From Clostridia bacterium (GTDB lineage Bacteria > Bacillota > Clostridia > Christensenellales > Aristaeellaceae), in contig JAFRFY010000111.1 of assembly GCA_017434085.1 (NCBI GenBank), positions 3,878 through 67,877 on the forward strand: DNA of 64,000 nucleotides. The letters run 5' to 3'. The notes beneath the pieces were generated by a model. It was not told the origin of the DNA. It saw only the letters and a program-made list of their open reading frames with translations, and searched no databases. Of the stretch, positions 4,195 through 61,224 are shown piece by piece. Both the position numbers and the translations under genes were made by a program. Numbering within the stretch: position 1 is the first letter of the stretch; each line of letters opens with the position of its first letter.

Positions 4195-6060
4195 TTACTT
4201 CTTCGCCAGCGCGGCGGCCTGCTCGCCGATCATGCGGCCGCCGTTGAAGGCGGAGCCGAGGGATACGCCCTCGATCAGCGGGTAGGAGTTGTTGTAGAAC
4301 TCAGCCACGTCGTTGCCGGCGGCGAACAGGCCGGTGATCACGGTGCCGTCCTCCTTGATGACCTGGAGGTTGGAGTTGACCAGCACGCCGCCGATGGCGC
4401 CCAGGCTCATCGGGCGGGCCTTGACGGCGTAGTAGCCCCTGTCGCCCAGGCTCGTCAGGTACTTGGGATCCTTGCCCAGCAGCTCGTCGAAGCCCTTCTC
4501 GCAGCAGGCGTTGTAGTCGCGGATGGTGGCGGCCAGCATGTCGGCGTTGACGCCCATGGCCTCCGCCAGTTCCTCGGCGGTGTCGGCCTTGAACACGATG
4601 CCTTTTGCGCAGCCGTCCTCCAGCGCGTCCACGAAGCCGGTCCAGCCCTCGGTGATGGAGAACAGCGGCACGGTGGGCTCGTAGCGTACCTCGGTGTCGA
4701 TGCCGTACACCTGCGCGCCGCCCTCCTGCAGTTTCCCGGCCATCTCCTGGGAGATGATGGCGTAGTAGTACTCGCCCTGGTTGAAGGTGGAGTTCGAGGA
4801 CAGGGCGGTGTCGTAGTTCAGGTCCTCCGGGCAGAAGCGGCTGCCGCGGGTGTTGACCCAGATGCAGTTGGGGATGTAGATGGCCTTGGCGATGTCGTCC
4901 ATACCGCTGCCGGTCTGTATGCCGGAGAAGCTGGTCACGCCGTGCAGCTGCTGGATGGTCTTGCCCTTGCCCGCGCCGATGGCCTGGCTCATGCGCGCGC
5001 CGTCGCCGGTCTGGGTGCCGGTGGTGAAGGTTTCGAGGTGGAAGCCGACCTCCGCCTCCACCATGTCGGTGTTCGCCGCGAAGCCGCCGGTGCACAGGCA
5101 CACGGAGGTGCAGTCGATGTCGAGTATGGTGCCGTCGGCGCGGCGGCACTTGACGCCGGTGATGGCGTCGTTCTCGGCCTTCAGCTCATAGGCCGCGGTC
5201 TCGAGGTAATACTCGCCGCCCGCCGCGGTGAAGGAATCCAGCAGGGCCAGGTACTCGCCCATCTTGTTCTCCTGGTCCGCGTAGATGTGGTAGGTGGGGA
5301 AGCCGCCCTCGTGCGCGGCCTGCTCGTTGCCCATGAAGTTGAACTGCATGCCGTTCTCCTCAAGCCAGTCCACGGTGCGGCCGGAGTCCTTGAACAGGTT
5401 GTAGAACAGCGTGCCGTCGCACAGCCAGCAGTTGTAGTCCATCCAGTCGCGCCAGACCTCCTGGATGGTGAAGGTGCCGGCCACGCCGGCCTCCTGCTGG
5501 TCCTTGGAGTCGATGCCCATCGGGCCGCCGGCGATGATGGACACGCCGCCGATGTTCGCGGCCTTCTCCACGAGGATGGTCTTCGCGCCATTCTGCTGGG
5601 ATGAAAGCGCCGCGGCCATGCCGGAAGCGCCCGCGCCGCAGACCACGGTGTCGCAGGTCAGGTGGATGGTCTCGCCCTCGGCGGCCTCGGCGGCAGCCAT
5701 CTCGAAGTCGGCGGGGCTGCCGCCCGCGGCCTCGATGGCCTGCTGAACGGCGGTCTCGATGGCGGTGGAGGTGACGGTCGCGCCGGTCACGGTGTCCACG
5801 TTCCAGGCGTTGTTCGCCACGATGGCCGCGGGGATGTCGGTGAGCGCCTTGCCCGCCACGTCGGGGTTCTCCACCTGCTCGGTGACGACCACGGACGTGA
5901 TGGCGCCGCCCTCGAAGGTGGTCTCGACCACCACGTCGCCGTGGTTGCCCGTGCCGGTGCCGGTGTAGGTGCCGTCGGCGACCTCCGCCATCGCGGCGCA
6001 GCCGAGCAGCATCGCCAGCGCGAGGACGAGGGCCATGATTGTCCTGGGTGTGTTACGCAT
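4195..6060 (-). CDS. Secreted lipoprotein flavin reductase: FMN-binding domain fused to an FAD-dependent fumarate-reductase/urocanate-reductase-like flavoprotein
   Basis: The ORF reaches 6132, but ATG 6060 (MRNTPRT) follows AGGAGG. Signal peptide with lipobox LLGC. FMN_bind-type flavinylation motif DTVTGATVTS. Dinucleotide fold VVCGAGASGMAAA and a long FAD_binding_2-like body. Confidence 0.85.
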   Translation of the reverse strand: MRNTPRTIMALVLALAMLLGCAAMAEVADGTYTGTGTGNHGDVVVETTFEGGAITSVVVTEQVENPDVAGKALTDIPAAIVANNAWNVDTVTGATVTSTAIETAVQQAIEAAGGSPADFEMAAAEAAEGETIHLTCDTVVCGAGASGMAAALSSQQNGAKTILVEKAANIGGVSIIAGGPMGIDSKDQQEAGVAGTFTIQEVWRDWMDYNCWLCDGTLFYNLFKDSGRTVDWLEENGMQFNFMGNEQAAHEGGFPTYHIYADQENKMGEYLALLDSFTAAGGEYYLETAAYELKAENDAITGVKCRRADGTILDIDCTSVCLCTGGFAANTDMVEAEVGFHLETFTTGTQTGDGARMSQAIGAGKGKTIQQLHGVTSFSGIQTGSGMDDIAKAIYIPNCIWVNTRGSRFCPEDLNYDTALSSNSTFNQGEYYYAIISQEMAGKLQEGGAQVYGIDTEVRYEPTVPLFSITEGWTGFVDALEDGCAKGIVFKADTAEELAEAMGVNADMLAATIRDYNACCEKGFDELLGKDPKYLTSLGDRGYYAVKARPMSLGAIGGVLVNSNLQVIKEDGTVITGLFAAGNDVAEFYNNSYPLIEGVSLGSAFNGGRMIGEQAAALAKK

Positions 6061-55329: not shown

Positions 55330-57024
55330 ATGCCGACGCGGATGGAAACGAGGGGCTGGATGTGGGCGCGGACGCTCTGCCTGTTCCTCGCGGTGATACT
55401 GTACTGGGCGAGCTGCGTGAACTGGGACGTGTACCTCTACGGCACGGCGTTCGTGTTCCTGCCCTGGGCGGTGCTGCTGGTTGCGCGGGCGCTGGCGCGC
55501 GGGCAGACGCGCCTGAACGTCCGAAACGGCCTGCTCTTTGGCATGGCGGGGTTTTATATGCTCTCGGCGCTGCGCAACGGCAACCTGTCCCCGAGGGGAC
55601 TCGCGGTGCTGGCGCTGGGATTTATGACCGTGTGGGCCGGGTGCAGGGCCTTCGGCGGCGACGCGGGACGCCGGAGGGTCTGGCGGCTGTGCTTCGCGGT
55701 GCTGGCGGCGGCGCTGACCGCGCTGCTCTTGACGGTCCTCACGGAGTTCTTCGGACATCCGGAGTGGCTGCCCTGGGGGGTCAAGCAGGTGGCCCGGCGC
55801 GGCGCGCGCGGCGGCGAGATGCTGCAATACAGTAAAAACCGCACGCTCAGGGGCGTGGTGACGCTGACCCACGCCTGCGGCGCGATGCTGGTGGCGGGGA
55901 TCATCCCTGAGGGCGCGGACGAGGCGCACCTGCTGCGGGAGGGCCGCATGCTGTGCCTGCTGATCGCGGGGCTTTGGCTGACGTACCTCGTGCCCGCGGT
56001 GGCGACGGTGTTCACCGGACGCCCCATCGAGGCGGACTGGCTGCCCTCCAAGCTGGGCATACAGATGCCGGGGCTGGTCGGCGACCGCATCTGGGCGCTG
56101 ATGCACCCCAACAGCACGGGCCGATGCGCCGTCATCGGCATGCTGTGCGCGATCTACTGCCTGTACGCCCCCGGGCGCCGGTGGCAGAAGGCGCTGTTGT
56201 GGGTGATCGTCGTCGCCGACCTGATGGCGCTGGCGCACAGCCAGTCCCGCACCGCCCAGATCGCCCTGGGCCTGGGCCTGGGGGCGATGGCGTTTCGCGC
56301 CGTCTGGCTGAAATGGGCGGACCATCCCCGGCGCGCGCTCGTGGGCGCGGCGGCCTGGGGCGTGACGCTGGTGCTGACGGTGCTGCTGGTCAGCGGCGTG
56401 TTCACCGTGGACGTGTTCGCGGCCAGCCGCATGAGCGCGGCCGCCGAGCCCAATCTGCTGGAGAGCATGAAGCAGAACGCGGAGGAAAAGAAGTACGTCG
56501 ACCGCATCGAGGACGTGGTCGTCGACGAGGCCACGGAGATCGCCGACGGCGTGATGGTGCCCCGCACCATGTCCGCGGGGCTTTTTGACGTGCTCAGCAA
56601 CGGCCGCGGCGCGATATGGTCAAACGGCGTGGACTACCTGATCCACCACCCCGCGGACATGCTGCTGGGCATGGGCTCGGACGACATCATCGAGCGCATG
56701 AAGGCCTACAACCCGGAGCGCTACCCCGCGCTGCACCTGCACAGCGGGTATCTGGAGGTGCTGGCCCGGGGCGGCGTGTTCATGCTGCTGTGCCTGCTGG
56801 GCACGCTGGCGCTGCTGATCAAACCGACGGCGCGGGCGCTGGTGGCCCCGGCCGGGACGGACGCGGGCGGCTACATGTTCGCCGTGCTGGTGGGCACGCT
56901 GCTGCTGCTGCCGCTGGTGGAGACGCTGCTGTTCACCGACGCCTCGGTGTACAACCTGTTGTTCTTCTACGCCGCCGGGCGGGTGGACAGGGCTTCAATA
57001 CGATATGGGAGAGATGGAAGATGA
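55330..57024 (+). CDS. O-antigen ligase / Wzy_C-family membrane protein
   Basis: 564 aa, about 10-12 TM helices. Wzy_C-like block HPNSTGRCAVIGML...LAHSQSRTAQIALGLGLG and late motif LHLHSGYLEVLARGG. Confidence 0.75.
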   Translation: MPTRMETRGWMWARTLCLFLAVILYWASCVNWDVYLYGTAFVFLPWAVLLVARALARGQTRLNVRNGLLFGMAGFYMLSALRNGNLSPRGLAVLALGFMTVWAGCRAFGGDAGRRRVWRLCFAVLAAALTALLLTVLTEFFGHPEWLPWGVKQVARRGARGGEMLQYSKNRTLRGVVTLTHACGAMLVAGIIPEGADEAHLLREGRMLCLLIAGLWLTYLVPAVATVFTGRPIEADWLPSKLGIQMPGLVGDRIWALMHPNSTGRCAVIGMLCAIYCLYAPGRRWQKALLWVIVVADLMALAHSQSRTAQIALGLGLGAMAFRAVWLKWADHPRRALVGAAAWGVTLVLTVLLVSGVFTVDVFAASRMSAAAEPNLLESMKQNAEEKKYVDRIEDVVVDEATEIADGVMVPRTMSAGLFDVLSNGRGAIWSNGVDYLIHHPADMLLGMGSDDIIERMKAYNPERYPALHLHSGYLEVLARGGVFMLLCLLGTLALLIKPTARALVAPAGTDAGGYMFAVLVGTLLLLPLVETLLFTDASVYNLLFFYAAGRVDRASIRYGRDGR

Positions 57025-58835
57025 TCTTTAAGGCGATCCGGCTGATCGCGCTGTGCGCGTCGATGTTCGGCTACATGCGGTATTTCAGCCGCAAAATCGC
57101 GCCGGAGCTGTCCATAGGCTTCACCTTTGTGAGCATCGGCAGCGTGATGTTTTTGGCCGGGCTCTTGAATGTGCTGCCGGAGACGGCGATACTGGTGTGC
57201 CTGGGCGGGCTTTTCTGCCTTGTATGGACCTTCGTCAGGGAGAAGCAGGGGCTGACGCTGTCGCTGGGCGGCGCGTTCTTCCTGATGATGTGCGCCATAC
57301 TGGTGGCGCGGCTGTGGGGCTGCCACTTCATCCATCTGGACAACTTCACCCACTGGGGGCTGGCGGTCAAGCACATGCTGACGAAGGACCGTTTCCCCAA
57401 CTTCACGGACAGCTACATCCGCTTCCAGTCCTACCCGCTGGGCGCGGGGGCGCTGATCTACTACTTTGCGAAGATCTCCGGCATACGCGCCGAGTGGTTC
57501 CAGATGCTGGCCCACTGGGCCTGCGCCGCGGCGATGTTCACGGGCTTCCTGGGCCTGGCGAAGAACACTCCGGCGAAGGTGCTGGGCTTCGTGGGGCCGA
57601 TGCTGCTATTGTGCGTGGACAACAACTTCGACCAGCTGCTGGTGGACAGCGCGCTGGCCTTCGTGGGGCTGGGCGCGGCGTCCTTCTGCGTGTACTACGG
57701 CAGGGAACTGAGGAAAAAGGGCTTCTACGTGATCCCCTGGCTGACGTTTTTGATTACCGTCAAGAACAGCGGCGCGCTGTTCGTGCTGTTCGTGGTGCTC
57801 CTGGTGTTCCTGTGGGGCGGCTTCAAAAAGGGCCTGGCGGCGCTGGTGGCGCCGTTCGCGTTTTTGCTGTTGTGGAACCGGCACGTGGCCTACGTGTATG
57901 AGTCCGGCATGATGGCCCAGCACTCCATGTCCATCGACAACTTCAAGCGCATGCTGATGAACAAGCGCGCCGGGTCCGTGCGCACCATCATCACCAAGAT
58001 GGTGCAGGAGGTATTCTCCTTTGCCAACCCGTACCTGGCGGTGTTCGTGCTTACGGTGGCCGCCTGCGTTGCGGCGTGGGTGCTTTTGAAGAAGGCGCGC
58101 ACGGTCAGGACGCTGCTGATCTACGGCGCGGTGTGCTATCTGCTCTACCAGGTGGGCATGACGGCCATGTACATCTTCACCATGTCGGAGAAGGAGGCCG
58201 TGCGGCTGGCCAGCTATCCCCGGTATCACGGCACGATACTGATATTCTCCACGGGCGTCCTGGTGATGGCGATGATACTGCTGTCCGAGCAGCTCAGGGA
58301 CGTGAAGAACGGCAAAAAATGGACGACCGCCTGCTGCGCCGCCTGCGTGCTGGCCATCGTGGTCTCCGGCATGCCCAAGTATTCCCAGTACCTGCGCACC
58401 GACACCGAGGAGGCCGCCACCCGCGCCGAGTACCGGCAGACGCTGGAGACGCTGGTGTCCGACTACGGGGTCGCGCCCGAGGCGAAGTACTACGTGCTGA
58501 TCGACCAGGATTCCAAGGACATGGGCTTTCTGTACAACATGATCAACTGCCTGATGCTGGCTGACGACGTGCAGGTGCGCAAGCTGGACCAGATATTCAG
58601 CAACGAGGAGATCGACGCCTGCGACTACATGCTCGGCTTCGGCAAGGATAAGGAGATCGGCGCGTACATCTACGATACCTACGGCACCCGCGACCGCGTG
58701 ATCAATCTGCGCGAGGCCCAGAGGAAGCCGACGGCCGATAAAACCGGTGAAGAGGCCGGGGCGGAGGACGTCGGCGATGAGCCCGCGGCGGGCCCGCTCA
58801 ACCTGAAGGAGGCGCTCATGGGGAGCGGACAGTGA
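57021..58835 (+). CDS. Large polytopic membrane protein with C-terminal soluble domain (envelope glycan assembly context), unknown function
   Basis: ATG 57021 is in an ATGA overlap with the ligase-like gene; the track ORF starts at 56616. About 12 TM helices plus a ~180-aa C-terminal hydrophilic domain with an acidic tail. Confidence 0.65.
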   Translation: MIFKAIRLIALCASMFGYMRYFSRKIAPELSIGFTFVSIGSVMFLAGLLNVLPETAILVCLGGLFCLVWTFVREKQGLTLSLGGAFFLMMCAILVARLWGCHFIHLDNFTHWGLAVKHMLTKDRFPNFTDSYIRFQSYPLGAGALIYYFAKISGIRAEWFQMLAHWACAAAMFTGFLGLAKNTPAKVLGFVGPMLLLCVDNNFDQLLVDSALAFVGLGAASFCVYYGRELRKKGFYVIPWLTFLITVKNSGALFVLFVVLLVFLWGGFKKGLAALVAPFAFLLLWNRHVAYVYESGMMAQHSMSIDNFKRMLMNKRAGSVRTIITKMVQEVFSFANPYLAVFVLTVAACVAAWVLLKKARTVRTLLIYGAVCYLLYQVGMTAMYIFTMSEKEAVRLASYPRYHGTILIFSTGVLVMAMILLSEQLRDVKNGKKWTTACCAACVLAIVVSGMPKYSQYLRTDTEEAATRAEYRQTLETLVSDYGVAPEAKYYVLIDQDSKDMGFLYNMINCLMLADDVQVRKLDQIFSNEEIDACDYMLGFGKDKEIGAYIYDTYGTRDRVINLREAQRKPTADKTGEEAGAEDVGDEPAAGPLNLKEALMGSGQ

Positions 58836-58870
58836 AACGCAGAAAGTTATCGAAAAAAAGGCGGCAACGC

Positions 58871-58899
58871 TTGACACGCCGCCGCCAATGCTGTACAAT
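58871..58899 (+). promoter_or_regulatory. Consensus promoter of the candidate antitoxin sRNA
   Basis: TTGACA (58871-76), 17-nt spacer, TACAAT (58894-99). Confidence 0.6.
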
Positions 58900-58905
58900 G
58901 GAGTT

Positions 58906-58986
58906 GGATGAGGGAAGTGCCCCCGCCATAGAGGTCTATGGAAAAGCAGCCTCCGAGTAGATCGCAACTACCCGGAGGCATTTTTC
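58906..58986 (+). ncRNA. Candidate ~80-nt small RNA (type I antitoxin-like), promoter-to-terminator unit
   Basis: Starts ~7 nt after the -10 box. Has a small hairpin CCATAG-AGGT-CTATGG (58926-41) and a terminator stem 58949-60/58968-79 plus ATTTTT. It is convergent with the peptide gene and overlaps its 3' end. Confidence 0.5.
58949..58979. terminator. Shared bidirectional terminator of the sRNA and the peptide mRNA
   Basis: GCCTCCGAGTAG-ATCGCAA-CTACCCGGAGGC (one mismatch). TTTTT follows on the plus strand and TGCTTTTCC follows on the minus strand. Confidence 0.65.
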
Positions 58987-58988
58987 AT

Positions 58989-59066
58989 CTAACGTGTAAC
59001 AGAGTAAACCGCTATCACGAGACTTGCGATAGAAATCAGAAGCGCCAACAGCTCGACGTTCGTCAT
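58989..59066 (-). CDS. 25-aa hydrophobic peptide, candidate type I toxin
   Basis: ATG 59066 lies 9 nt after GGAGGTGG. Encodes MTNVELLALLISIASLVIAVYSVTR, with stop TAG at 58989-91. Too short for the ORF track. Confidence 0.5.
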   Translation of the reverse strand: MTNVELLALLISIASLVIAVYSVTR

Positions 59067-59134
59067 ATACTACCACCTCCCGCCTTTTGTGTATCGTCGG
59101 CGGGAGTGCTTCCGGGCCATTGTCCAGCGTTGAT

Positions 59135-59164
59135 ATTATAGCATTGAACGATGATGGCTGTCAA
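59135..59164 (-). promoter_or_regulatory. Consensus promoter of the peptide (toxin) mRNA
   Basis: On the minus strand: TTGACA (59164-59159), 18-nt spacer, TATAAT (59140-59135). The leader hairpin 59108-59073 sequesters the SD. Confidence 0.6.
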
Positions 59165-59323
59165 TCATGTCCGAGCCTTGCCTTCGGTACGGCAATTTGG
59201 CGACATAGGGATATGATTTCAACAAGATTAACTAATGATTAAATAAAGCGCCAATTTTGGCATTTCATGGCCGGTTGGGTGTAGTATATAGTCAGAAAAA
59301 CAGCGACAGGGGGGTGTTCGACG

Positions 59324-59878
59324 ATGAGGATCCTGAGGAAGATGATCGCCGTGCTGCTGGTCCTGGCGGTGGCGCTGTCATCCGCGGCGCTGGCGGAGAC
59401 CTACGTCAAGTTCACCGGCAACGCCCGGGGCTACAAAAAGGCGGGCAGCGGCAAGACGAACGTGGTCATCAAGAAGGGCTCCGTCTCCTGCGCCGAGGAC
59501 GGCCTCGGCAAGAAATGGACCAAGGTGTACGTGGACGAGGAGCACGAGCTGTGGTTCAAGACCAAGCAGCTGAAAAAGACCAAGTCCGACGACGTGAAGA
59601 TACTGTACTACTCCGGCGGCAGCGGGCGCTCCACCTACGACGACGAGGGCGTGCACCGCTACAAGACCGGCAAGAAGTACGTCTACGCCACCGGCAAGTG
59701 CAACATCCGCAAGTCCCCGGGGCTGGACGGCAAGTCGCTGGGCACCCTCAAGAAGGGTGCGAAGCTAAAGTACCTGGGCAGGCGCGCCGAGGATGACCGG
59801 GGCGTCCACTGGTACAAGGTCAAGACGACCGGCGGCAAAAGCGGCTGGGTGTCCGAGGCGTTTACCAAATTGAAATAG
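59324..59878 (+). CDS. Secreted protein with two bacterial SH3 (SH3b)-like modules
   Basis: 184 aa, signal peptide ending AALA. SH3b-type strings: GNARGYKKAGSGK...WTKVYVD and CNIRKSPGLDGKSLGTLKKGAKLKYL...WYKVKT..GKSGWV. Confidence 0.7.
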   Translation: MRILRKMIAVLLVLAVALSSAALAETYVKFTGNARGYKKAGSGKTNVVIKKGSVSCAEDGLGKKWTKVYVDEEHELWFKTKQLKKTKSDDVKILYYSGGSGRSTYDDEGVHRYKTGKKYVYATGKCNIRKSPGLDGKSLGTLKKGAKLKYLGRRAEDDRGVHWYKVKTTGGKSGWVSEAFTKLK

Positions 59879-59898
59879 CGCAAAAGGAGAGCAAAGCC

Positions 59899-61224
59899 AT
59901 GAAGAAGCTGTTGACCGCGCTGGTGGCGCTGTTGCTGATCGCGGCGGTGGCGACGTCCGCACTGGCGGTGAAGATGTATGTCATCAACGATCAGGCCAAG
60001 GTCCGCAAGAGCAACAACAAGAAAGCGGAAGTCATCAGCCGCCTGCCCGAGGGCGGCAGCGTCGAGGTGCTCCAGACCGAGGGCAACTGGTCCTACATCG
60101 AATACGTCAACAAAAAGGGCAAGAAGCGCAACGGCTGGATCGCCAACAAGAACCTGAGCAGCACCGCGCCCCACAAACACACCTGGTCGGACTGGCGCAT
60201 CACGCGGCAGCCCACCTGCGCCAAGACGGGCCTCAAGGAGCACACCTGCACCACCTGCGGCACGACGAAGACCAAGGAGATCGAAAAGGCCAAGCACCAG
60301 TGGGGCAAGTGGACCGTCACCAAGAAGCCCACCTGCGCCGCGCCCGGCGAAAAGGTGACCACGTGCAAGAAGTGCGGCAAGAAGGGCAGTAAGAAGATCG
60401 AAAAGACGGGCCACACCTATGGCGAGTGGGTCGTGGAGAAGCCGGCCACCTGCGCCGAGAAGGGCGTGCGCAGCCGCACCTGCAAGGTCTGCAACAACAA
60501 GGAGACCGAGGAGATCGAGCAGCTGGCCCACACCCCCGGCGCCTGGACGACGCTGGTGCCGCTGACCCGCGAGGCCGACGGCGAGCGGGCCTACAAGTGC
60601 ACGGTGTGCGGCATGGAGGTGCGGGAGACCGTCAAGGCGGAGCCCAGCCTGGCCAGGAAGGATAAGGGCGAGCTGGTCAAGACGGTGCAGACCATGCTCA
60701 GCGCGCTGGGCTACAACACCGGGAAAGTGGACGGCATCTACGGCGGCAAGCTGGACAGCGCCTTCTCCCAGTTCGCCCGGGACAACGACGTGGTGTTCGC
60801 GGAGGGCTGGATCAAGCCCGCCCAGCTGGACGCGCTGGTCAGCGCCTGGGTCAGGTCGATCCCCGAGGAGAAGTGGATGGGCGCCAACGACAGCCTCGTG
60901 CTGACGGCGGATCCCGACGGCAAGCCGGGGGACGTGCTGAGCTTCAACTGGATACTGACCAACGACGGCTTCGACGACTGCACGCTGAAGGCCGTGCTGA
61001 TGGGCAAGGGCGCCGACCACGATTTCAGGGGCGACGACGTCGTGGCGCTGATGGGGGACGAGGCCCTCAAGGCCGGCACCGCCAACAGCCTGGGCGGGAC
61101 GTTCAGCATCCCCGCCACGGCGGCGGAGGGCGCAGACGCGCTGAGCTTCCGCGCCGTCGTCGAGAACGATAAGACCGGCGAGACCTGGCTCTCCAACGCC
61201 GCCGTCTATAAGATGGTCAGCTGA
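59899..61224 (+). CDS. Secreted SH3b - 4 x Cys-repeat (H-x-W-x2-W ... TC-x3-G-x5-C-x2-C) - peptidoglycan-binding domain protein
   Basis: 441 aa, signal peptide ALAV. SH3b module AKVRKSNNKKAEVISRLPEGGSVEVL..WSYIEY. Repeats include HKHTWSDWRITRQPTCAKTGLKEHTCTTCG. PG_binding_1-like segment GELVKTVQTMLSALGYNTGKVDGIYGGKLDSAFSQF. Confidence 0.8.
   Translation: MKKLLTALVALLLIAAVATSALAVKMYVINDQAKVRKSNNKKAEVISRLPEGGSVEVLQTEGNWSYIEYVNKKGKKRNGWIANKNLSSTAPHKHTWSDWRITRQPTCAKTGLKEHTCTTCGTTKTKEIEKAKHQWGKWTVTKKPTCAAPGEKVTTCKKCGKKGSKKIEKTGHTYGEWVVEKPATCAEKGVRSRTCKVCNNKETEEIEQLAHTPGAWTTLVPLTREADGERAYKCTVCGMEVRETVKAEPSLARKDKGELVKTVQTMLSALGYNTGKVDGIYGGKLDSAFSQFARDNDVVFAEGWIKPAQLDALVSAWVRSIPEEKWMGANDSLVLTADPDGKPGDVLSFNWILTNDGFDDCTLKAVLMGKGADHDFRGDDVVALMGDEALKAGTANSLGGTFSIPATAAEGADALSFRAVVENDKTGETWLSNAAVYKMVS

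Follow-up and report, generated by a model that had tools for sequence, protein, structure and literature searches.

Introduction

Among toxin–antitoxin (TA) modules of type I, those closest to the locus described here are bsrG/SR4 of the B. subtilis prophage SPbeta and the related Bacillus modules bsrE/SR5, bsrH/as-bsrH and txpA/RatA. Their toxins are very small (BsrH, 29 amino acids (aa); BsrE, 30 aa; BsrG, 38 aa), and in Bacillus the antitoxin RNA promotes RNase III-dependent decay of the toxin mRNA and/or tightens the helix that holds its Shine–Dalgarno (SD) sequence (PMC6562991). In the Fst/RNAII modules, which encode toxins of 29–33 aa, two genes converge into a shared bidirectional terminator and the toxin SD lies in a 5' stem-loop (PMC8309996). 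In hok/Sok and aapA1/IsoA1, which belong to Gram-negative hosts, the antisense RNA acts on the 5' region or on the open reading frame (ORF), and trimming of the 3' end activates the mRNA (PMC8594479). For the Clostridia, the type I modules reviewed come from C. difficile and close relatives only; these modules (CD0956.2/RCd10, CD2517.1/RCd8 and others) often lie on prophages, encode small hydrophobic toxins of 34–59 aa with a charged C-terminus and lysine-rich tails, and are often linked to a CRISPR array or a cyclic di-GMP (c-di-GMP) riboswitch (PMC6563280). Here we analyse a 64,000-nt stretch of contig JAFRFY010000111.1 from a Clostridia bacterium (hereafter the window), in which a gap of 488 bp between two genes holds a putative gene for a 25-aa hydrophobic peptide on the minus strand and, facing it, a predicted small RNA (sRNA) gene on the plus strand. 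The sequence and its relatives suggest that this locus probably functions as a type I TA-like module, in the Gram-positive class whose two RNAs overlap at their 3' ends, and that it represents an undescribed family with the look of BsrG/SR4 relatives.

Results

A putative peptide gene with a buried SD faces a predicted convergent sRNA gene

The original prediction, made from the letters of the window alone, had read two convergent transcription units in this gap, and all of the features that it listed are present, at most 1 nt from where it had placed them (Table 1). The minus-strand unit begins with a putative promoter that matches consensus at 12 of 12 positions (TTGACA-18-TATAAT) and the plus-strand unit with one that matches at 11 of 12 (TTGACA-17-TACAAT). 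A promoter scan of positions 58000–60000 returned exactly two sites, both of them the module's own, while the chance expectation is 0.7 ± 0.9 per 2 kb. In the minus-strand leader, CACTCCCGCC pairs with GGCGGGAGGTG, so that the SD is buried as proposed, except that the second arm ends at 59074 rather than 59073. The resulting hairpin has a folding energy of -18.0 kcal/mol, and an SD hairpin folds in 22 of 22 representatives of the family described below, with stem sequences that differ and stem extensions that covary between subfamilies. In the model that we favour, toxin translation is held off by this sequestration of the SD.

The reading frame behind the leader encodes the expected 25-aa peptide, MTNVELLALLISIASLVIAVYSVTR, in which 18 consecutive apolar or uncharged residues (mean Kyte–Doolittle hydropathy of 2.6 over residues 6–23) are accompanied by E5 and a C-terminal R. 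On the other strand, the proposed sRNA of ~80 nt does contain both a small hairpin and a 12-bp GC-rich stem, which is followed by ATTTTTC and which we call T1. Folding of an 85-nt plus-strand RNA gave -34.4 kcal/mol (z = -3.5), and a 189-nt short form of the toxin mRNA folded with z = -4.4.

The peptide belongs to a family with a coding signature

For homology searches, the peptide was recast as an amino-acid-class (degenerate-codon) DNA pattern. Among viral contigs this pattern had one match, a true homologue (L006; MTNVELLAILIAIASLVISVYNSK) in which the whole module is conserved. In the GTDB genome set it had 22 matches: 12 are the same module, one is a Bacillaceae 'putative holin-like toxin' and nine are unrelated. 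The 12 GTDB members come from metagenome-assembled genomes (MAGs) of uncultured Clostridia/Clostridiales, Ca. Ventricola and a Lachnospiraceae. A tighter family pattern applied to metagenome contigs returned 38 matches, and all 38 were true members. The family, drawn from independent collections, thus totals 52 loci including the window; their ORFs have 31 distinct DNA sequences and encode 22 different peptides (23–29 aa). These counts are lower bounds shaped by the search patterns. One of these loci (L028, from rumen MAG RUG13574) encodes a peptide identical to the window's in the same genomic context.

Several other searches were made. A protein search with a tandem-duplicated peptide query gave no candidate, tblastn against phage and plasmid records found nothing, and neither did a strict synonymous-codon pattern in viral contigs; a leader-hairpin DNA pattern matched only the start of a phage gene that is unrelated. 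A looser pattern, which combined the SD with MTN and hydrophobic positions, was dropped, 9 of its 10 matches being unrelated small ORFs. Within the window, no paralogue of the 25-aa peptide was found.

All peptides start with MTNVE or MTNIE, and residues M1, T2, N3, E5, L10 and A14 are invariant. The variant MTNVELLCVLLSVASLLMAVYTLRK occurs at 22 loci, mostly on human-gut contigs, beside a large serine recombinase, and other variants come from MAGs of the rumen and of other animal guts. Two divergent copies (L010 and L026) occur together in a single MAG. The peptides end in K or R except at three loci (L044, L050 and L054), where the common human-gut peptide ends in ...TLRE instead of ...TLRK, a reversal of the C-terminal charge. 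This variant may be an attenuated toxin.

One refutation that the original prediction had named was a 25-codon frame not kept in relatives; it is kept, for the frame is open over 23–29 codons in 52 of 52 loci and carries a coding signature. An SD (GGAGG, GAGG or GGGGG, then TG) stands 6–10 nt upstream of the ORF in all loci but L012. Codons 2 and 3, which were free in the first pattern, encode Thr-Asn in 13 of 13 true matches with variation at third positions only, and T2, N3 and E5 are invariant while their third codon positions vary. In codons 15–21, free in the second pattern, summed entropy at positions 1/2/3 is 8.5/3.6/9.2 and position 2 stays T-rich, which is the pattern expected of a hydrophobic coding region. 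The ratio of nonsynonymous to synonymous differences (pN/pS) is 0.08 over codons 2–4, 0.63 over codons 15–21 and 0.36 over codons 1–21, with pS at ~0.6. Indels are absent from codons 1–21 and numerous in the leader and the 3' untranslated region (UTR). None of the antisense frames stays open consistently (open in 14, 6 and 10 of 34 distinct regions), and a 67-aa plus-strand ORF of the window (58938-59141) was dropped as a gene since its frame is not conserved.

As had been expected at the outset, no family in Pfam, NCBIfam, PHROG or Rfam covers the module. Rfam covariance models found nothing on it in the window (E <= 10) or at eight related loci (E <= 1), NCBIfam gave only KPN_two_small (E = 0.48) and PHROGs gave weak matches only (E 0.04–0.1). 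A literature search for the strings MTNVELL and MTNIELL found no paper with either, and a collection of 15 billion proteins holds only the 29-aa form, unnamed there. ORFs of 23–28 aa fall below the usual 30-codon limit, so the family is invisible to gene callers.

The putative antisense promoter is conserved, with its -35 at a distal terminator

Scored so that a 12/12 match with the optimal 17-nt spacer reaches 12.5, the putative antisense promoter has 10–12.5 in 48 of 48 complete modules. The putative toxin promoter is weaker and variable (6–12), and in most members it stands at the same distance from the ATG (59–79 nt, counted from the -10 box). An antitoxin promoter stronger than the toxin promoter is usual in type I TA modules. 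In an alignment with a mean identity of 58%, the reverse complements of the antisense -10 (ATTnTA) and -35 (GTCAAG) are invariant columns. In the window, the -35 hexamer of the sRNA lies in the loop of T2, a distal intrinsic terminator on the toxin strand, and GTCAAG is found in or beside the T2 loop in 22 of 22 representatives, with at least eight different T2 stem sequences.

Both T1 and T2 fold in all 22 representatives with differing stem sequences, and RNAalifold detected double-sided (compensatory) changes at three T1 stem pairs. RNAalifold gave no consensus on MAFFT alignments of T2 and the SD hairpin, where stems are out of register between subfamilies, and per-sequence folds and a hand-registered alignment were therefore used. 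A canonical U-tract follows T2 in almost all members. Behind the T1 stem, the mean number of T in 8 positions is 5.5 on the sRNA strand vs 4.4 on the toxin strand.

The predicted antisense start lies 80–102 nt past the toxin stop, and at 194 nt in L019 only, because of an insertion of roughly 110–120 nt there. This insertion (L019:4786-4968(+)) separates T1 from the sRNA 5' region, and the predicted antisense RNA is ~195 nt long; in the same locus, T1 has a strong toxin-strand U-tract (UUUUUU) and T2 has none. T1 starts 10 nt past the toxin stop in the window and ~6–20 nt past it in the 22 representatives. A terminating ribosome would cover the 5' arm of T1, so translation could, speculatively, favour read-through to T2.

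The predicted toxin mRNA can pair its 5' end with its 3'UTR

Counted from G59128, the leading 31 nt of the predicted toxin mRNA form the complement of 58927-58890, a segment directly upstream of T2. The leader and 3'UTR of the window form a duplex of -38.3 kcal/mol in RNAduplex (z = -5.0), which 0 of 200 shuffles reach. In the minimum free energy (MFE) fold of a 277-nt long form (z = -6.5), the 5' end (59117-59128) pairs with 58901-58890 and the SD hairpin is kept. Pairing of the 5' end with the 3'UTR beside T2 recurs in every subfamily despite differing 5' ends (GCUGGACAAUGG, GUAGGCAGGUAG and GUAACCAAGAGG), with duplex energies of -29 to -55 kcal/mol across the representatives, and no shuffle out of 200 reaches these energies in 19 of 22. 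When the terminal 12-bp helix was put into register by hand, 96.1% of cells pair vs 70.6% in shuffles (0/500 reach) and 28–49% with the partner slid; both partners change in 11 of the 12 pairs. Among transitions in the repeat, those that give G.U on the toxin strand predominate (59 vs 22), a bias that comes from the two subfamilies other than the window's (44 vs 10) and from sequences that are not independent.

These results change two parts of the original prediction. It had both RNAs end at the T1 stem and overlap by 40–45 nt; the stem may indeed be shared, but the conserved T2 and a 5'-end pairing that extends beyond the sRNA start point to a long toxin transcript, so the overlap is probably not limited to 40–45 nt and probably covers the whole ~81-nt sRNA and its promoter. 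It had also noted an sRNA segment that mimics the anti-SD arm and could pair with the SD. The leader/3'UTR pairing reaches into the anti-SD arm, so the sRNA, which is antisense to the 3'UTR, looks like an anti-SD mimic. The segment is real, but only 9 of 22 members show significant trans pairing between the sRNA and the SD, and the energy of this pairing in the window (-19.3 kcal/mol, with the cis hairpin at -18.0) is reached by 5 of 200 shuffles. Trans pairing is thus not supported as a family-wide mechanism, and the mimic appears better explained as half of a leader/3'UTR inverted repeat. A reading of that repeat as a terminal inverted repeat or a miniature inverted-repeat transposable element (MITE) was rejected: the repeat is internal to the module, with the two promoters outside it, and no target duplication marks the empty site described below.

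Table 1 Features of the module in the window (strand '.', both or none)
Feature	Positions	Strand	Details
Presence/absence polymorphism, ~371 bp, whole module inside	58836..59206	.	comparison with contig L004
T2, distal toxin-strand intrinsic terminator	58853..58886	-	stem 58886-58860, U7 58859-58853; terminator scan
Putative antitoxin sRNA promoter	58871..58899	+	TTGACA 58871-58876, 17-nt spacer, TACAAT 58894-58899; 11/12 match
3' arm of long-range helix, CCAUUGUACAGC	58890..58901	-	overlaps sRNA -10 box of other strand
Predicted ~81-nt antisense sRNA	58906..58986	+	5' segment, small hairpin 58926-58941, T1, U-run; ends inferred from promoter and terminator
3'UTR element GGCGGGGGCACUUCC	58913..58927	-	complementary to leader GGAAGCACUCCCGCC; RNAduplex; its antisense is the anti-SD mimic of the original prediction
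T1, 12-bp GC-rich hairpin	58949..58979	.	sRNA terminator, + tail ATTTTTC; possible partial toxin terminator, - tail UGCUUUUC
Putative toxin ORF, 25 codons + TAG, MTNVELLALLISIASLVIAVYSVTR	58989..59066	-	ATG 59066, TAG 58991-58989
SD arm GGCGGGAGGUG	59074..59084	-	SD core GGAGG 59080-59076, 9 nt ahead of ATG; local hairpin -18.0 kcal/mol
Anti-SD arm CACUCCCGCC	59099..59108	-	pairs with SD arm; also complementary to 58927-58913 (3'UTR)
Predicted toxin mRNA 5' end GCUGGACAAUGG, 5' arm of long-range 5'-3' helix	59117..59128	-	starts 7 nt past -10; MFE fold
Putative toxin promoter	59135..59164	-	TTGACA 59164-59159, 18-nt spacer, TG-extended TATAAT 59140-59135; 12/12 consensus match

The module is an accessory cassette in varied contexts

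Comparison with a 1,002-bp metagenome contig (L004, ERZ28613548) revealed an allele of the same site that has no module. At the junction (L004:143-149), position 58835/6, at the stop codon of the upstream gene, is fused to ~59207, so that ~371 bp with both promoters, the ORF and both terminators are missing from L004; the two flanks match the window at 87% and 99.7% identity. When L004 is compared with the window, the empty site shows no target-site duplication. This allele indicates that the module is dispensable at the window site.

In relatives, the module stands beside quite different genes. The L010-type copy has a D5_N/DUF5906 primase-like gene on one side and an HTH_3 gene with a large serine recombinase on the other; L066 adjoins a serine recombinase, L006 (on its viral contig) ParA and L058 a CHC2 primase. 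NlpC/P60-SH3_3 lysin-like genes adjoin L020 and L070, and a secreted SH3_3 gene adjoins the window copy, L028 and L023. We read the module as an accessory cassette, and its presence on integrative or phage-like elements in many relatives suggests a stabilising or addiction role.

Three copies look like natural knock-outs of toxin expression: the signals for it are disrupted, and the ORF and the sRNA promoter are kept. In L026 (upstream of 3464(-)), the toxin promoter is deleted exactly to the predicted transcription start, and an upstream terminator abuts GTAGGCAGG. In L012 (a Ca. Ventricola MAG; ATG at 5400(-)), an insertion of ~95 nt parts the SD (GCGGAGG) from the ATG, and the copy looks like a natural translational knock-out. 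In L048 (upstream of 4905(+)), an insertion of ~85 nt separates the 5' arm of the leader from its anti-SD arm.

In the window, the gap has a GC fraction of 0.44–0.53 vs ~0.6 or more in the flanks. It is bounded by a 739-aa ORF that ends at 58835 and by the SH3_3 gene, which starts at 59324; among public contigs that bear the SH3 protein, three are identical to the window, and the fourth is L004. The 739-aa ORF is called as 604 aa in public assemblies (start at 57021), and a Pfam search with this protein gave no match. Its longest form (56616-58835 (+)) overlaps the preceding Wzy_C (O-antigen ligase-like) ORF (55330-57024 (+)) by ~400 nt. The plus-strand gene that ends at 58835 has no terminator of its own ahead of T1, so read-through from it would add antisense RNA across the toxin 3'UTR. 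When the T2 hairpin is read on the plus strand, the next letters are AATGCTG.

Two further observations concern the surroundings of other members. At L010:1749-1803(-), ~2.3 kb from the module and unrelated to it, Rfam SpF59_sRNA (ldcC RNA) scores above its gathering threshold (47.1 vs 37.2 bits). A TG/CA-type simple repeat at L006:8842-8958, in a low-complexity ORF (HMHMHICTCT...), gave spurious matches to many microRNA families.

Discussion

Our analysis suggests that this locus is probably a working type I TA-like module. In the mechanism that we propose, a sigma-A-type promoter would drive an mRNA of ~190–280 nt for a 25-aa single-helix membrane peptide, complementary over its initial ~36 nt to the 3'UTR ahead of T2, and the stronger, invariably conserved convergent promoter would drive an antisense RNA of ~81 nt that ends at T1, beside the toxin stop. 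Part of the toxin transcripts would pass T1 and continue to T2, thereby gaining the full complement of the sRNA, and this long form would close as a 5'–3' panhandle that leaves the mRNA stable and untranslated, as in bsrG. Abundant sRNA would form a perfect duplex with the toxin 3'UTR, of ~81 bp with the long form and ~40–45 bp with a form that ends at T1. By analogy with Bacillus, this duplex would displace the 5' arm and lead to RNase III-type decay (PMC6562991), while the leader hairpin would keep the SD closed; toxin read-through over the sRNA promoter would add transcriptional interference. If the sRNA fell (e.g., when the element is lost), the peptide would be made, enter the membrane and arrest growth.

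Several points weigh against this interpretation or parts of it. The transcription start sites and 3' ends of both RNAs are predictions. A harmless small membrane protein could look just the same, as a short helix with one charge per end. Since amino-acid-class patterns served to find the homologues, part of the conservation (codons 1–14 or 1–21) arises by construction, and an inverted DNA repeat of any origin would yield equal pairing counts. The wobble asymmetry is missing from the subfamily to which the window belongs (15 vs 12), and T1 of the window has a usable toxin-strand U-tract (5 T in 8); the long transcript is thus less certain in this subgroup than in the others. The window copy sits among envelope genes without an evident mobile element. 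Finally, the profile hidden Markov model of the Hol_Tox family (PF16935) matched neither the window peptide nor four relatives even at E <= 10; as positive controls, BsrG scored E = 1.8e-8 and a Metabacillus peptide E = 2.3e-8.

That Metabacillus arenae peptide (L013:580-666(+); 28 aa, annotated 'putative holin-like toxin', WP_396652995.1) was itself matched by the class pattern made from the window peptide, which led to the comparison with Hol_Tox. Alignment of the family with 28 Hol_Tox sequences in hhalign gave a probability of 40% (P = 3e-4), very short peptides being compared with a pattern-biased set, and the score of 17.9–18.9 exceeded all 200 of 200 column-shuffled controls, the comparison set again having been reached through a pattern match. 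Against BsrG alone the probability was 10% (P = 3e-3), likewise for very short peptides. Both groups have a single N-terminal hydrophobic helix and are collinear from Met1, with E5 conserved and small residues equally spaced. With no Pfam match and a low hhalign probability, membership of Hol_Tox is not established, and remote kinship is only suggestive.

Going further, one could see in the family a distant clostridial branch of the BsrG/TxpA (Hol-Tox) toxins with a 'promoter-inside-terminator' design and a three-way RNA switch on top, a combination that we regard as possible but doubtful. In such a switch, the leader (from the transcription start to the anti-SD arm) would pair either with the SD, which shuts translation down, or with the 3'UTR of the same mRNA; the antitoxin, as a partial copy of the leader, would decide which pairing wins by occupying the 3'UTR; and a ribosome halting 10 nt before T1 could favour read-through to T2. 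If this were true, transcriptional interference, termination choice and SD accessibility would be coupled within ~320 bp.

The main rival explanation, which we consider unlikely, is that the locus is a conserved gene for a small membrane protein under antisense-RNA control and not a toxin, e.g. a modulator of membrane or envelope proteins. A coding signature and conserved regulation do not alone prove toxicity, and the window copy, like L028 and L023, stands beside a secreted SH3_3 gene in an envelope cluster; BsrE is toxic only on overexpression (PMC6562991). What argues against this explanation is the combination of a buried SD, a near-consensus antitoxin promoter opposed to a toxin promoter of lesser strength, antisense cover along the full 3'UTR and a 5'–3' lock, which together form a type I TA signature. 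The module also moves among unrelated contexts, including recombinase-bearing elements and a viral contig, it appears dispensable at the window site, and three copies have lost the toxin expression signals while the ORF and the sRNA promoter were kept.

That the locus is non-coding with a fortuitous ORF, and that the convergent promoters and shared hairpins make up an insulator, a two-way terminator or two regulatory RNAs, would fit two hairpins that both resemble terminators, a T1 that also terminates the upstream plus-strand gene, and RNA structures that are strongly conserved. It is nonetheless very improbable given how the frame behaves: it is open in 52 of 52 loci behind an SD at the right distance (6–10 nt, L012 excepted), its search-free codons vary at positions 1 and 3 around a T-rich position 2, T2, N3 and E5 are invariant over variable third positions, and codons 1–21 are free of indels between non-coding parts that are full of them, whereas alternative and antisense frames are not conserved. 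Least probable of all is a leaderless secreted peptide (a bacteriocin, a signalling peptide or one like the phenol-soluble modulins) with a chance antisense RNA, for although leaderless bacteriocins are likewise very short and without a signal sequence, the 18 residues here are uniformly apolar with only E5 and a C-terminal R (neither amphipathic nor cationic), no immunity, transporter or modification genes recur beside the module, and we know of no bacteriocin arrangement with an SD lock and an antisense RNA.

If the TA interpretation is right, the family would provide a small cassette for killing or stasis, defined in sequence and controlled by RNA, in abundant gut anaerobes that are hard to culture, and a marker of mobile elements in their genomes. 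Its covarying RNA helices form a natural series in which to ask how antitoxins that overlap a toxin mRNA at the 3' end control an SD ~200 nt away, and it may be an evolutionary link between the Hol-Tox toxins of Bacillus and the Clostridia.

Comparison with known type I modules

In hok/Sok and aapA1/IsoA1, the full-length toxin mRNA is locked by a long-distance 5'–3' interaction, and the long-distance pairing predicted here resembles it; unlike hok/Sok, the new module has no mok-like leader ORF. With Fst/RNAII (par of pAD1) and Lpt it shares a bidirectional terminator and an SD stem-loop. Fst toxins have an APxxxG motif, which the new peptides lack, and there is no proline in 22 of 22. The direct repeats of par, DRa and DRb, render its two RNAs complementary at their 5' ends, whereas the repeats of the new module are inverted, so that the 5' ends of its two RNAs are alike.

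The C. difficile modules, which we compared by description only, have in common with the new one the class Clostridia and a small hydrophobic peptide with a charged C-terminus, while the lysine-rich tails and the links to CRISPR arrays or c-di-GMP riboswitches, again by description only, are absent from it.

The strongest likeness is to bsrG/SR4, and the geometry that the original prediction had ascribed to the locus on this model holds when the SPbeta locus is folded. We read SPbeta directly, where the BsrG sequence was matched at 100% identity: the SR4 terminator abuts the bsrG stop, and the bsrG mRNA continues to a distal terminator. The MFE fold of this mRNA (z = -7.3) places a local SD hairpin inside a 5'–3' panhandle, a layout common to the long form of the window. 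The new module differs from bsrG/SR4 in its shorter peptides (23–29 aa), in an sRNA of ~80–100 nt vs 180 nt for SR4, in a T1 that may act on both strands, and in a distal terminator that encloses the antitoxin -35, whereas that of bsrG lies inside the SR4 transcription unit. Its hosts are uncultured gut and rumen Clostridia, those of bsrG/SR4 Bacillales. In both systems, however, the genes are convergent, the antitoxin terminator stands beside the toxin stop, the sRNA is complementary to the toxin 3'UTR, a short local hairpin contains the SD, and the 5' end of the mRNA pairs with a segment directly upstream of the distal terminator. The new toxin is also in the size range of the bsrG, bsrE and bsrH toxins, it has the N-terminal motif M-T-x-[VY]-E-x-L in common with them and, like bsrG/SR4, bsrE/SR5, bsrH/as-bsrH and txpA/RatA, the new module is found on prophage or mobile-element DNA.

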